DNA of 64,000 bases from a virus (lineage: Duplodnaviria; Heunggongvirae; Uroviricota; Caudoviricetes): IMG/VR virus record IMGVR_UViG_3300046522_000748; one strand, written 5' to 3'. Below the pieces are notes generated by a model that saw only the letters and a program-made list of their open reading frames with translations, was not told the DNA's origin and searched no databases. Made by a program: the position numbers and the translations under genes. Shown piece by piece: positions 53,005-63,502 of the stretch (position 1 is its first letter; each line of letters opens with the position of its first letter).

Positions 53005-53225
53005 AACGGCGCCGCTCCAACGGCTAGTGCTTCAGGGCATGACATCAAGCAGAGTGGAATCTGCACCTGGGGGTTCTAACATTCCCCTCAATGTTGGCGT
53101 GTGGCAAACGTTAGATCAGGCATGAGGAGCTGGCGAGCCCGGAAATGGGCGCTTGAGCCAATAGCAATTGCTTGCACTTGATGTATATGTATCAGCTACA
53201 GATTAACCGCTTCGGCGGTTTTTTT
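53005..53225 (+). ncRNA. Unclassified structured RNA, copy 1
   Basis: Own promoter and UUCG terminator (53205-53225); no credible ORF; helices homologous to 53858-54069. Confidence 0.75.
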
Positions 53226-53231
53226 GTTTTC

Positions 53232-53270
53232 GCCAACAGCGTTGACAACTTTAAAAAGCGTCATTAGAAT
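53232..53270 (+). promoter_or_regulatory. sigma70 promoter + operator (1 mismatch)
   Basis: gccaacagcgttgac; TTGACA-N17-TAGAAT. Confidence 0.8.
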
Positions 53271-53276
53271 TCGCGA

Positions 53277-53460
53277 AGTTGAGAGTGGGGCACAATTAGC
53301 GATGCCGTCCGTTATTGGAGGACGTTAAAGGCCATGTCTTCGGACTTACACCACCACCAGCCGACTTGCGACCGGCCCTCTCAAACGATATTAAAAGTGA
53401 TTGCGGCATCCCTGGCGGGCTCCACCAACTGAAACGTTACGGGAAAAGGACGGGATGCGA
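53277..53460 (+). ncRNA. Structured leader / ncRNA
   Basis: ttgagag/ctctcaa closing stem at predicted TSS, cgtcc/ggacg and gtc-ttcg-gac hairpins, gcatccc/gggatgc helix over next ATG. Confidence 0.55.
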
Positions 53461-53787
53461 ATGAGGAGTAAGTTTTTGAGGGGCTCGGCCCTGCTTCTGG
53501 TCACATGCTGCATTCAGGCATCTTATGCTGAAGAAAGCACATGGAATCAGAACGGGGAAATCCTACCTTTGGGTGTGGTGAGAAGATGTATAGGTGATCA
53601 GTTTTACTTGGTGGTAGTTGATGGCGGGATTCCCGGTGGTGGCTGGGCGAAATCAATTACTCTAGCACTGGAAAACGGTCAGCCAGAACGATGCAAACAA
53701 CCTTCGGTTTCATCCGACCCTAGCGCGTATGGGGATCGTCTCCGTGAGTTGGAAGCGGATAGACTGCGAAGGAATGCGTCGAGCTAG
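53455..53787 (+). CDS. Secreted small protein
   Basis: Signal peptide ending ASYA; Cys pair. Confidence 0.6.
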   Translation: MRMRSKFLRGSALLLVTCCIQASYAEESTWNQNGEILPLGVVRRCIGDQFYLVVVDGGIPGGGWAKSITLALENGQPERCKQPSVSSDPSAYGDRLRELEADRLRRNASS

Positions 53788-53857
53788 GTAGGAAATGTCT
53801 GCCCCCGAATTCGTTGTGCAACTGTTCGAACAGATCGCAGGCGGTCATTCTTTTTTA

Positions 53858-54069
53858 AACGTGCCGACTCTCATCGGCTAGTGCCTCCGTGCATGACGAG
53901 AAACAGGAGAGAGACCTGTAGCGGAACGGCCAACGCGGACCAGTTGGCGGGTGGCAACGTCAGTCCCAGCTATGCGAGCTTTAAATGGCGTCTGAGCATA
54001 GTAACAAGGACAGCTCGATTGGTTACCGCAAGTAACTAAAAGGCCGCATATTCGTATGCGGCCTTTTTT
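53858..54069 (+). ncRNA. Unclassified structured RNA, copy 2
   Basis: Homologous to copy 1; ends in ggccgcata-ttcg-tatgcggcc-T6 terminator. Confidence 0.75.
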
Positions 54070-54090
54070 ATTGCGTAAAATTTATCAGAC

Positions 54091-57004: not shown

Positions 57005-57387
57005 GGGTTGCCTGCGTTCGGGTTTGCCGAGTAATTGATGATCGGATTGCGCATTACCATCTGAAGGTTTTGGTAGTGACTGATCCATTCGGCGGCAACG
57101 TTGTTCAGCTCATTCGTCAGCATCGCTACAGCCTCTTCCACACACGACTCCTCGCAATAGGTGAAGCGCATCAGGTGTTTGGTGTCGTCGCACAGCGAAT
57201 GTGGGGCCATGACCGTCTCAAGCTTGATATGGGCGTTGTTCCACATCAAAACGTAGTGCGCATCGGTTCGCCGGGCAAAATACGGCTGCACACTGATCAC
57301 GAAATCCTCGCTGCCATTTTCCCCAGGCGTAGCCGAGACGTAGCAGAGGACGACGGGAAAGTCTTCGCGGTTCTTCTTGGCAGTCAT
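57001..57387 (-). CDS. Hypothetical protein
   Basis: Behind promoter 57421-57459. Confidence 0.6.
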   Translation of the reverse strand: MTAKKNREDFPVVLCYVSATPGENGSEDFVISVQPYFARRTDAHYVLMWNNAHIKLETVMAPHSLCDDTKHLMRFTYCEESCVEEAVAMLTNELNNVAAEWISHYQNLQMVMRNPIINYSANPNAGNP

Positions 57388-57420
57388 GGCATTCGCTCAC
57401 AATCGGTACTTTATTCGATT

Positions 57421-57459
57421 ATTATACTAGCGCCACGGATGATTGTCAATGTATCTGAC
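57421..57459 (-). promoter_or_regulatory. sigma70 promoter + operator
   Basis: TTGACA-N17-TATAAT; gtcaatgtatctgac. Confidence 0.85.
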
Positions 57460-57472
57460 TTAGCTGAACAGG

Positions 57473-57916
57473 CTATTCTGCCTTGAGTAGTTGAACACTC
57501 ACAAACGGGATATCATCGCCTCGATGACATGTGTTTTCGCCGTTATCTTTAATGATTTGCACGAAATTTTTGCAGAAATCTTCTGCTCGCCGCTGAATTT
57601 CCAGCAATTGCTCTTCAGATGGCGCAGTTTCAACCAAAAATTCCACAGAACTGTGCATTCGGAATTCGGTGCTGTACCGTATCGCCACTTTGCGTTGATC
57701 GACGTATTCGTCACGCGTGTAGGGTACATCCAACAGGTTGTCCTCCCACCACTCCAGGAGCTTGTTACTTTGATTGAATTTTTTTCTGACGCCCGCGCCA
57801 TACCAGATGTCATCAGAGATGCCGGTGATGTAGGCACACATATGGCGTTCAAAATTGCCGGTATAGGCACCTGTATTGACTACTACCAAATGGTTTTCCA
57901 TATCAATATCTCTCAT
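57473..57916 (-). CDS. Hypothetical protein
   Basis: TGAYTGNFERHMCAYITG; directly downstream of RNA/terminator. Confidence 0.7.
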   Translation of the reverse strand: MRDIDMENHLVVVNTGAYTGNFERHMCAYITGISDDIWYGAGVRKKFNQSNKLLEWWEDNLLDVPYTRDEYVDQRKVAIRYSTEFRMHSSVEFLVETAPSEEQLLEIQRRAEDFCKNFVQIIKDNGENTCHRGDDIPFVSVQLLKAE

Positions 57917-57947
57917 TTTAAGTTTGGCTAAAGTGCTGAATTTATTG

Positions 57948-57978
57948 AAAAAAAGAAACCACCGTTTCCGATGATTTC
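57948..57978 (-). terminator. Intrinsic terminator
   Basis: GAAAUCAUCG-GAAA-CGGUGGUUUC-U7 on minus strand. Confidence 0.85.
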
Positions 57979-58137
57979 GTTTTAGTCTTGCTTTGCCCGC
58001 TGCGTTGTCAGTACCCCTAGGTGCGCTATAACCGGCATCGCTGACGGCACTGGTCTTCGCGGTAAAGATAGAACCACACTAGCCCCATCGGTGTTCCATT
58101 TAAGGAATTCAGCGATCAGGACGGCTCAAAGCAAGGA
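57948..58137 (-). ncRNA. Structured RNA (sRNA or riboswitch/attenuator candidate)
   Basis: 9-bp closing stem 57987-57995/58127-58135, 8-bp inner stem 58037-58044/58109-58116, own promoter and terminator, no ORF. Confidence 0.7.
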
Positions 58138-58141
58138 TTAC

Positions 58142-58180
58142 ACTATGGCAATCAAATTCTGTTTTGTCAATATTATTGAA
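58142..58180 (-). promoter_or_regulatory. sigma70 promoter + operator (1 mismatch)
   Basis: TTGACA-N17-CATAGT; gtcaatattattgaa contains upstream stop. Confidence 0.75.
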
Positions 58181-58856
58181 TGGCCATATTTTCGGTCGTG
58201 TGAATCTGTGCAATTGTCCCGAAAAGCCGCATATCAATGGCCAGCGCCTCAGCATGAGCCTCCATGATCTCCATTTGGATCATTACAGTGTGCAGACTCG
58301 ACAAGGCGACGGTCAGGGCTCCCTGGATGTCGCCGAACCGGTCGGTGAAGACGGTGCCGCGTGACAAATCAGCGAACGTGCCGCGAACAGCGCAGATGTT
58401 GTCACGCACGGCGCTGATCAACTTGCTCGACGGAGTGTCCATATCCACACCTTGCCAAGGATCAACCGTGGCGTTGTCGGCCATGGACTGCCTTTCCTCG
58501 CGGGTAAAGGCTTTGTCAGGCAGTATCGCCGGTTCGTACGGCGATGGCCCTGTGTCTCGGCAGTGCTGCTCGTAACGCTCCAGCTCTACCATAACGTTGT
58601 CCAGGCTCATGATGCTGCAAGTCATCAGGCCCACGTGGGGCTCAAGACGTTGCGTCAGCAGAGGGATCAGCTCCCGAAGAACATTCAGTTGGCTCCGGAT
58701 TTTTACAATGCTGATTATTCCGCCTTGAACCAAGTGGCTCACGGGTTTTGAGAAATCAGTGCCCCAAATCGGGCGTTTTTTGTAGTTGATGCGATCCTGC
58801 CACTGACCTTCCGAAGTGGGTTTACCGCAGCAATCACACTTGAGTTGCTTTGACAT
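58173..58856 (-). CDS. Hypothetical protein
   Basis: 227-aa ORF. Confidence 0.6.
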   Translation of the reverse strand: MSKQLKCDCCGKPTSEGQWQDRINYKKRPIWGTDFSKPVSHLVQGGIISIVKIRSQLNVLRELIPLLTQRLEPHVGLMTCSIMSLDNVMVELERYEQHCRDTGPSPYEPAILPDKAFTREERQSMADNATVDPWQGVDMDTPSSKLISAVRDNICAVRGTFADLSRGTVFTDRFGDIQGALTVALSSLHTVMIQMEIMEAHAEALAIDMRLFGTIAQIHTTENMAIQ

Positions 58857-62253: not shown

Positions 62254-62281
62254 ATTATACTCACCCCTCATTTTTTGTCAA
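62254..62281 (-). promoter_or_regulatory. sigma70 promoter, palindrome incomplete
   Basis: TTGACA-N16-TATAAT. Confidence 0.7.
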
Positions 62282-62395
62282 TGCCAAAAACATAATGATT
62301 GGGATGTCAGCAAGCATTTCGAATTAGGCGTTTTCTTTGAATTGGCATATTGAGCAAATGCGCCCATGTGCCCAGCGCTGCCTTTATGGTTCCGC

Positions 62396-63502
62396 TCAAC
62401 CAAACGCCCCAGCGCGATAGAGTCTTTCCAGATTGTGGGCTGGCCTAAGGTGCTTCTCCGTGCGATTCAAGAAGCTGCTGATGGAACCATTGCTCAGTGA
62501 AAAGCAGCAGTCTGGCCGGACATCGCGCTGGGTAAGCATGCTGGTTGAGGTGGTAGTAATCAACACTTGGGCTGATGACTCAAGCGCACGCTGAAAAGTA
62601 GGGCCTGAGGCTAGATGATGAAGACCGTCCATGTCATCAATGAAGATGAACGATGCCTGCTTGCGCTCTGACTCCGCTGTCTTCATCCAGAAAAAGAAGG
62701 TAATCAGCGTCCTTACCCCAACTGAGGTGTTGCGCAGCAAATTCATGGTTTGGTTGCCAATTCGCTGCCCTATGAATGCTTGGCCTTCCAAATTTTCTGC
62801 GGTCAAGCGGTAGCTCAGCCCGCACTCACGCAGGAACGAGACTAGCTCATCGAGCCAGCCATTTTTCAGGATAGCGGCGCCAAGGTCTCTTCTCCCCTGG
62901 GTAAACCCAATGTAAGAATTGACATCGACTGCGCTGAAATACAGCATATTTTCGACGAAGCTGATGAATTTCTTAAAGCATTCATTCGCCGGGGTTTTTT
63001 CGAGCAGTGAGTTTTTGTGAATGTATGAGGCGATTGAAATGGTGGAGCTGGAAAGATCTCGCTTCAAGTGCTCGGCACCATCTGCAAGGATGGTGGCGCC
63101 TCCACCAAAACGGCGATCAACTTCCGCGTAAAGGCCCCCATCGATTATTATGCGTTCGTACACGAGATCTCCGGGTGCCGAACGAGCGTACGCATAGGTC
63201 AGATCCTGATCATCAAATCGGAATTGATAGGTGAACTCCATCATCTCGGCCCCACTGCCGAGGCTCATGTCAGAATCGTGACTGCCAATTACGTGACTAT
63301 CCGTAAGGTGGCGAGTCAGGTCGAAGATGGCCATACCCAAAGCGGTTTTTCCTGCACCGGAGTTGGCGAGGACAATGCCAGTCTTCACCAGCCGATTCGT
63401 AACCGACGCCTCGCTGAAATCTTGGCGACCCACAGAGCCGAAGTCCAAAAACAACATTTCATCAAAGCATCGAAATCCGGTCGCGGTGAAATAATGGAGC
63501 AT
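62396..63502 (-). CDS. AAA_15/AAA_21-like ABC-type ATPase (degenerate)
   Basis: GFRCF N-terminus; Walker A LANSGAGKT; signature SVGVR; Walker B IFIDDMD; HNLERLY tail. Confidence 0.75.
   Translation of the reverse strand: MLHYFTATGFRCFDEMLFLDFGSVGRQDFSEASVTNRLVKTGIVLANSGAGKTALGMAIFDLTRHLTDSHVIGSHDSDMSLGSGAEMMEFTYQFRFDDQDLTYAYARSAPGDLVYERIIIDGGLYAEVDRRFGGGATILADGAEHLKRDLSSSTISIASYIHKNSLLEKTPANECFKKFISFVENMLYFSAVDVNSYIGFTQGRRDLGAAILKNGWLDELVSFLRECGLSYRLTAENLEGQAFIGQRIGNQTMNLLRNTSVGVRTLITFFFWMKTAESERKQASFIFIDDMDGLHHLASGPTFQRALESSAQVLITTTSTSMLTQRDVRPDCCFSLSNGSISSFLNRTEKHLRPAHNLERLYRAGAFG

Follow-up and report, generated by a model that had tools for sequence, protein, structure and literature searches.

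A promoter- and terminator-bounded, strongly conserved locus near 58 kb of a Pseudomonas-type mobile element as a candidate orphan small RNA gene

The non-coding region near 58 kb of the viral record IMGVR_UViG_3300046522_000748 (Caudoviricetes) raises a question of gene organization: is the structured RNA that appears to be encoded there the leader of the gene that follows it, as in a riboswitch, or the product of a small gene in its own right? The record was analysed as one stretch of 64 kb (the window), and the RNA locus, its flanking genes and all locus coordinates given here lie on the minus strand. A first-pass annotation had described an operator-promoter, an RNA of about 190 nucleotides (nt) with a closing and an inner stem, and a terminator with a possible antiterminator ahead of a promoterless gene, and had likened the RNA to the ydaO riboswitch for cyclic di-AMP (c-di-AMP). 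Every sequence feature that it listed is real. The reading favoured here, to which we give about an even chance of being correct, is that the locus is an orphan, lineage-restricted, stand-alone gene for a structured small RNA, the terminator of which also closes the upstream operon and attenuates transcription into the downstream gene. The sequence features, their conservation and their absence from known families are documented in this study, beginning with the conservation, which carries most of the argument.

Six metagenomic relatives (L001 and L004-L008) were recovered by means of the two flanking proteins, giving seven sequences with the window, and all six carry the same arrangement of genes and RNA. 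The first-pass annotation had named a lack of conserved homologues among the grounds for rejecting its proposal; six are present. Two of them (L004 and L005) are near-identical to the window throughout (upstream synonymous divergence, dS, of 0.02) and carry little information. The RNA is 95.6-98.9% identical to that of the window in the six relatives, and the four divergent ones differ from it at 4-8 positions in 181 nt (2.2-4.4%), against the approximately 30-50 changes expected in a neutral stretch of this length at the rates of the flanking genes. In these four, identity to the window falls to 83-91% at the 3' end of the upstream gene and to 69-85% (15-31% divergence) in the next intergenic region, and in L001 and L006 to 68.5-69.5% in the downstream gene. 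The flanking genes of the divergent relatives have a dS of 0.15-0.62, rising to about 2 for the downstream allele of L001 and L006, with ratios of nonsynonymous to synonymous divergence (dN/dS) of 0.1-0.27. Selection on the RNA is therefore stronger than on the neighbouring non-coding and synonymous sites, as judged against flanking-gene dS and the next intergenic region, and the alignments indicate that the RNA is under strong purifying selection. Within it, a near-invariant core (alignment columns 57-173 of the seven sequences) contains only two variable columns, 58066 (U/A, in the loop of P3) and 58007 (C/U, in a junction), and takes in P3 and P4 with the junctions, the P1 and P1b strands on the 3' side, and the terminator's left arm (helices as in Table 1). 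Near-invariance begins at the first base of P1, as a transcript boundary predicts. The locus has its own promoter and its own terminator, and the boundaries of conservation coincide with both, which is what marks a stand-alone small RNA gene.

Such conservation could also act on the DNA, as a binding platform, origin or recombination site, or could reflect a recently exchanged mosaic block without function; we consider this very unlikely. The region is indeed mosaic, identity to L007 and L008 jumping between 0.7 and 0.99 along the 12 kb compared, and the core holds several short palindromes (CCGG, CCTAGG and GAATTC). However, three sublineages share the same conserved block although their flanks differ on each side of it; the block starts at the inferred transcription start and carries both promoter and terminator, its stem variation preserves wobble pairing on the transcribed strand, and the repeat search found neither iterons nor long direct repeats. 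The contrast is clean on the upstream side in L007 and L008 and on the downstream side in L001 and L006; a single recent transfer fails as an explanation because both flanks diverge in some lineage while the RNA stays fixed in all. A copy of a host attachment site was rejected, since exact 24-28-mers of the core are absent from the GTDB set, which represents 185,579 bacterial and archaeal species by one genome each. A protein-coding reading of the RNA was likewise rejected, synonymous-type variation being absent from the core. A very distant allele (dS about 2) has taken the place of the downstream gene and of the intergenic region after it (57933-57400) in L001 and L006, with dS of about 0.25-0.27 in the genes on either side; the left breakpoint of this replacement lies directly after the conserved post-terminator stretch.

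The promoter scan places a sigma70 promoter, TTGACA-17-CATAGT, at 58170-58142 with a TG one base ahead of the -10 hexamer, in agreement with the operator-promoter first proposed for this strand. The -35 is located inside TTCAATAATATTGACA, a weakened copy of the operator palindrome GTCAAT-N4-ATTGAC; its left half-site is the weak one, owing to the overlap with the upstream gene's stop codon. The word GTCAAT-N4-ATTGACA, with at most three mismatches to the copy at the RNA promoter, has 11 occurrences in the window where 0.73 are expected, most of them at -35 boxes and on the same strand as the RNA promoter. Judged by its sequence, the RNA promoter is a member of the element's own set of operator-type promoters. 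Many near-consensus sigma70 promoters between 1164 and 63584 on the minus strand (for example 10334-10319, 50451-50436 and 63584-63569) have the palindrome fused to their -35, and the approximately 30 near-consensus promoters of the window are all oriented to that strand. Transcription would start at about 58135 (±3), approximately 7 bases after the -10. In the alignments no relative departs from the window at the -35, the -10 or CAATAATATTGACA, and the spacer and the bases between the -10 and the closing stem are variable. The -10/start region TAGTGTAATCCTTGCTTT (58145-58128) and the internal GGCUAGUG/P3 segment TAGTGTGGTTCTATCTTT (58081-58064) form an 18-nt direct repeat, 72% identical and 64 nt apart.

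At the other end of the locus stands the only terminator-like site downstream of the upstream operon. Its hairpin alone has a predicted energy of -12.8 kcal/mol, and in the six relatives it has one extra C-G pair at the base of the stem and 6-8 U. The window copy lacks a G at 57955-57954 that is present in six of six relatives and accounts for the extra basal pair, and its terminator is slightly weaker. The terminator shares no bases with the closing stem, from which an A-rich linker of 8-11 nt (8 in the window) separates it, and in the predicted fold the folded domain contributes no bases to it, so that the terminator stands apart. The strong terminator seen in the first-pass annotation is thus present; the distance of 30 nt that was given from it to the gene is not upheld, the gap after the U-tract being about 46 nt when the probable start, the second ATG, is used. 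The stretch CAAUAAAUUCAGCAC follows directly, and sequence divergence among the relatives sets in right after it. No further copy of CAAUAAAUUCAGCAC above chance is found in the window, so it is not a repeated regulatory word there.

Table 1. Coordinates of the features of the RNA locus and its flanking genes
Feature	Position	Strand	Description and basis
Upstream gene, 227 amino acids	58856-58173	minus	open reading frame; stop codon overlaps operator and -35 of RNA promoter
Promoter with degenerate operator	58180-58142	minus	degenerate operator TTCAATAATATTGACA (58180-58165), -35 TTGACA, 17-nt spacer, TG-extended -10 CATAGT (58147-58142)
Predicted RNA, about 187 nt	58135-57949	minus	inferred start to U-tract; folds and alignments
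P1, perfect 9-base-pair (bp) terminal (closing) stem	58135-58127 / 57995-57987	minus	minimum-energy fold
P1b, 4 bp	58124-58121 / 58000-57997	minus	minimum-energy fold
P2, long hairpin	58120-58104 / 58097-58083	minus	minimum-energy fold
P3, hairpin	58078-58073 / 58063-58058	minus	minimum-energy fold
P4, distal part irregular	58052-58046 / 58015-58009	minus	minimum-energy fold
Perfect 8-bp inner complement	58116-58109 AUCGCUGA / 58044-58037 UCAGCGAU	minus	complement search
Near-invariant core, 117 nt	58084-57968	minus	alignment of seven sequences
Intrinsic terminator	57978-57948	minus	10-bp stem with GAAA loop (57978-57955), U7 (57954-57948)
Conserved post-terminator stretch CAAUAAAUUCAGCAC	57947-57933	minus	last base alone varies, in one relative
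Downstream gene, 142 amino acids from second ATG	57901-57473	minus	ribosome-binding site GAGAGA 57914-57909, 7 nt upstream

Both pairings reported in the first-pass annotation, the perfect 9-bp stem between the 5' end and the 3' region and the 8-bp inner stem, are present at the positions listed in Table 1. A perfect 9-bp complement arises in 2.7% of 1000 mononucleotide shuffles of the 150-nt core. The 8-bp inner stem and the central part of P2 and P4 in the minimum-energy fold exclude each other: folds that include the inner stem reach at best -47.8 kcal/mol against -51.7 kcal/mol, and the best of them, 3.9 kcal/mol less stable, makes up about 1% of the ensemble. At each of the six paired positions that vary, the change is confined to one side, is a wobble-preserving transition and leaves the pair unbroken; on our own estimate that a random stem substitution keeps pairing in about 35% of cases, this speaks for P1, P1b and P2 with p of about 0.002. 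One hairpin of the alternative fold would, on inspection by eye, break in six of the seven sequences, which slightly favours the minimum-energy fold over the inner-stem fold.

Does this RNA belong to a known family? Rfam 15 gives no match at gathering scores in the whole 64-kb window, and with permissive filters (E<=10) the interval 57300-58400 yields only chance matches to csRNA and PVX_3, with no RF00379 and no transfer RNA (tRNA) or transfer-messenger RNA (tmRNA); ARAGORN finds no tRNA or tmRNA in the window. The resemblance to the ydaO riboswitch does not survive the Rfam scan that the first-pass annotation had proposed as a check: the locus fails the covariance model of the family (RF00379) both at the gathering score and at E<=10, and the identity is not supported. 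The ydaO-like islands exist as strings, without statistical support. Beyond Rfam, the RNA has no match among the INPHARED phages (megablast and blastn), and PLSDB gives no match for the RNA (blastn) or the upstream protein (tblastn). Invariant 18-28-mers are absent, as exact words, from IMG/VR and from the GTDB genome contigs. A covariance model of the 150-nt core recovers the known copies only, with no paralogue in the window and nothing in 52 Thg1-bearing IMG/VR viral loci (601 kb in total), and the downstream protein, used as a query for related loci, finds none in IMG/VR and one distant metagenome locus, from which the RNA is absent. Searches of the literature on the put RNA and on structured RNAs of megaplasmids and jumbo phages yielded nothing bearing on this RNA. 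On present evidence the RNA appears to be confined to one lineage, with seven near-identical copies.

The flanking genes define the transcriptional setting of the locus. The upstream protein is 81-97% identical in the relatives and has no family in Pfam, PHROGs, Foldseek against the PDB, VIA-align wide or ESM Atlas structure and features. Its two-gene operon starts at a promoter at 59367-59339, and the promoter and terminator scan finds no terminator between the upstream gene and the RNA, so transcription of the upstream operon would also enter the RNA. Translation of the downstream gene probably starts from its second ATG (57901, MENHLVV), because relative L001 begins there and GAGAGA lies 7 nt upstream. 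The promoter scan reveals no sigma70-like site on the minus strand between 58142 and a consensus promoter at 57449; the gene was rightly called promoterless, and the separate promoter for 57473-57916 that the first-pass annotation had counted as evidence against its own proposal is not found. Its dN/dS of about 0.1-0.13 points to purifying selection. The 142-residue protein matches PHROG 23621, and the searches applied to the upstream protein return for it only an unspecific ferredoxin/ACT-like fold, predicted with a mean local distance difference test score (pLDDT) of 76.8 and a template-modelling score (pTM) of 0.79, the best structural matches being unspecific at Z of about 6.

The downstream gene family comprises 486 representatives, and upstream DNA is readable in four of its more distant members (loci L009, L010 and L003, and Cronobacter phage GAP31); the RNA is absent upstream of all four. 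The spacer before the L010 homologue is 37 nt long, L003 has no non-coding gap before the gene, and in GAP31 the genes overlap. In the nearest outgroup (L009; protein P0007, 145 residues; L009:1-77), positions 1-27 are the 3' end of a tRNA gene (T-arm, acceptor strand and CCA), about 50 nt ahead of the start of the protein gene, and a tRNA thus occupies the place that the orphan RNA takes in the window. In GAP31 (NC_019400.1) the homologue, GAP31_181, has 177 residues and is related to the first 80 or so residues of the 142-residue protein (38% identity, E = 3e-6); it sits between Prs-like and Nampt-like genes (L002:1668-4770; NC_019400.1 79935-83037). A Prs/Nampt annotation pattern characterizes the NARP1 pair for the reconstitution of nicotinamide adenine dinucleotide (NAD+), which is described as a two-gene operon in Bas63 (bioRxiv 10.1101/2024.02.11.579819). 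As a functional clue, the NARP1-type neighbourhood of the GAP31 homologue is a lead only.

With a promoterless gene under purifying selection beyond the terminator, the locus might be a cis-acting leader, in which the folded domain senses a ligand, a protein or an RNA and thereby sets read-through into the 142-residue gene. We regard such a riboswitch-like attenuator as possible but unlikely. The segment CCGAUGG (58091-58085) is complementary to the left arm of the terminator, UCAUCGG (57974-57968), and the six relatives read CCGAUGA, which makes seven Watson-Crick pairs with that arm; we estimate the chance of such a 7-nt complement at about 0.04-0.07. Forcing the antiterminator helix raises the energy of the full RNA from -64.6 to -47.8 kcal/mol (a cost of 16.8) and that of the nascent RNA, with the right arm unmade, from -52.7 to -43.3 kcal/mol (a cost of 9.4), and the helix crosses the closing stem P1, so that a pseudoknot would be needed. 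Of the terminator/antiterminator logic proposed in the first-pass annotation, the complement therefore stands and the switch meets this cost of 9-17 kcal/mol. A way around it might lie in competing pairings of AUCGCUGAAUU (58116-58106), which may pair with CACCGAU in P2, with UCAGCGAU in the inner stem, or with AAUUCAGC past the terminator, the freed CCGAUGA then reaching the left arm of the terminator. The alternative 8-bp helix, at 3.9 kcal/mol above the minimum-energy fold, could free the antiterminator segment, and the conserved post-terminator stretch is complementary to the same switching segment: CAAUAAAUUCAGCAC and the two preceding U pair at 12 of 15 positions with 58113-58099, in the 5' strand of P2, including 8 consecutive pairs. 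A core that is invariant base by base is typical of aptamers, and the ferredoxin/ACT-like fold, unspecific as the match is, is often ligand-binding; the placement of the GAP31 homologue between Prs-like and Nampt-like genes also fits a leader that senses a ligand.

Several observations speak against a leader of this kind. No riboswitch family is matched in Rfam, and, in contrast to classical expression platforms, terminator and closing stem have no overlap. The RNA is missing upstream of the four other members of the gene family, the same aptamer does not recur before related genes in different genomes, and it was not found in the 52 Thg1-bearing viral loci, PLSDB, INPHARED, IMG/VR or the GTDB genomes. 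Moreover, L001 and L006 took up a downstream allele with dS of about 2 and their RNA stayed nearly identical. In its most specific form, the RNA would be the aptamer of a new phage or megaplasmid riboswitch class that switches between the P2/P4 fold and the 8-bp inner-stem fold, gates read-through into the ACT-like protein and senses an NAD-derived or defence-related nucleotide during infection. Such a ligand is proposed because the homologue of the ACT-like protein is embedded in the Prs-like/Nampt-like (NARP1-type) pair in Vequintavirinae phages; this version is a long shot.

Read-through could also be achieved by processive antitermination in cis, in the manner of the put RNA of phage HK022, where the nascent fold would modify RNA polymerase to ignore the next terminator. 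The put RNAs of HK022 are about 70 nt long, have two hairpins and act on RNA polymerase in cis. By this analogy, the order of promoter, conserved structured RNA, strong terminator and promoterless gene would fit, and base-by-base conservation would suit contact with a conserved surface of the host polymerase; yet the next strong promoter, at 57449, follows after a single small gene, and transcripts of the upstream operon carry the same RNA, so that the promoters would not be told apart. We consider a put-like function highly improbable.

The reading as a stand-alone small RNA gene has weaknesses of its own, which concern its neighbourhood, its fold and its 3' boundary. All homologues were found through the flanking genes, and the fixed neighbourhood is thus partly a matter of construction; a look-up of the 31-residue open reading frame inside the RNA, in the variant of the relatives, found no contig with the RNA only. 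The downstream gene, too, is 95-96% identical to the window copy in L007 and L008, and the contrast there is partly due to mosaic recombination. The energy of the predicted fold is only marginally below that of shuffled sequences (z = -1.95 for the full RNA and -1.52 for the core), two competing folds lie less than 4 kcal/mol apart, and P3 and P4 show no variation at all among the seven sequences. Compensatory changes number zero for any helix in the seven aligned sequences, which leaves the detailed fold unproven. Finally, a purely terminated RNA does not explain the 15 conserved nt beyond the terminator, and the downstream gene is conserved yet lacks a promoter-like site, so that read-through must matter and could be regulated.

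If the stand-alone reading holds, a narrow lineage of giant Pseudomonas-type mobile elements or phages would carry a small RNA gene of about 187 nt, expressed from an operator-type sigma70 promoter out of the element's own set of strong promoters. Its RNA would fold into a domain clamped by the 9-bp stem between the 5' end and the 3' region and would end at the separate, canonical intrinsic terminator, the terminated RNA being the main product. We infer the production of the RNA, its ends, its fold and its action in trans. Because the core is constrained base by base, the RNA most likely relies on a particular tertiary structure or on a particular partner, be it a protein, a small molecule or a second RNA, and not on secondary structure alone. 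The same terminator would close the upstream two-gene operon, and read-through past it would provide the only visible transcription of the 142-residue gene, which would make the RNA unavoidably the leader of that gene as well.

Should the RNA be made as predicted, it would add one more uncatalogued, strongly constrained structured RNA to this element. A core with two variable columns beside genes at synonymous saturation points to a precise molecular partner and makes a good small target for pull-down, probing or structure work, and its narrow distribution limits the present value of the RNA. The record is also corrected in one respect, in that no evidence is found here for a c-di-AMP-type riboswitch in a Pseudomonas-type element.

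Two candidate RNAs near 53 kb (53005-54069) in the same element invite comparison. Like the RNA at 58 kb, they have operator-type promoters, are about 200 nt long, belong to no Rfam family and are lineage-restricted, and all three contain GGCUAGUG. The shared 8-mer GGCTAGTG has three copies in the window, at 53022-53029 (plus), 53876-53883 (plus) and 58084-58077 (minus), all of them inside candidate RNAs; at least three copies occur in 9 of 100 shuffles, which is within the range of chance. The two groups differ in that no homology of the 58-kb RNA to the pair is detectable, either by blastn with 7-nt words or with the core covariance model at E<=10. The sequence that the first-pass annotation saw in common is thus present in all three, and kinship does not follow from it; the shared words may be due to chance or to a common binding word. 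The word AGCGATGCCG is common to 53298-53307 and 58042-58033 (two copies against 0.15 expected). In this part of the element, about 400 bp at 53465-53864 are present in the window and not in L007 and L008, where about 0.5 kb of additional sequence stands at window position 54089 and an additional gene, for 151 residues, near 62.3 kb (62271-62410).

Among known systems, the ydaO riboswitch (RF00379) is likewise a structured RNA, 100-200 nt in length, that precedes an intrinsic terminator and then a gene, and it has a few short strings in common with the locus, in the same order. The ydaO regulon comprises osmoprotectant-transport, cell-wall or related genes in organisms that make c-di-AMP. Here, by contrast, the predicted fold is a closing stem with three hairpins and is not pseudo-symmetric, the downstream gene encodes a ferredoxin/ACT-like protein of 142 residues and not an osmolyte or cell-wall function, the carrier is a Pseudomonas-type mobile element, and the RNA is confined to one mobile-element lineage. 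The HK022 put RNA resembles the locus in its promoter-proximal conserved fold followed by a terminator and a read-through-dependent gene, whereas the RNA described here is about 2.5 times larger and has one short gene downstream. Closer parallels are offered by the intrinsically terminated small RNA genes of phages and plasmids, and by small RNAs that arise from premature termination of leaders. The candidate has in common with these its own sigma70 promoter, a length of about 190 nt, a 3' end made of an A-rich stretch, a hairpin and a U-tract, conservation above that of the flanking genes, and read-through into a downstream gene. It differs from terminated small RNA genes in its body, which is predicted to be a closed multi-helix domain with invariant junctions and hairpins, and it looks in this respect more like a tertiary-structured or partner-bound RNA than like a base-pairing small RNA with a short seed.

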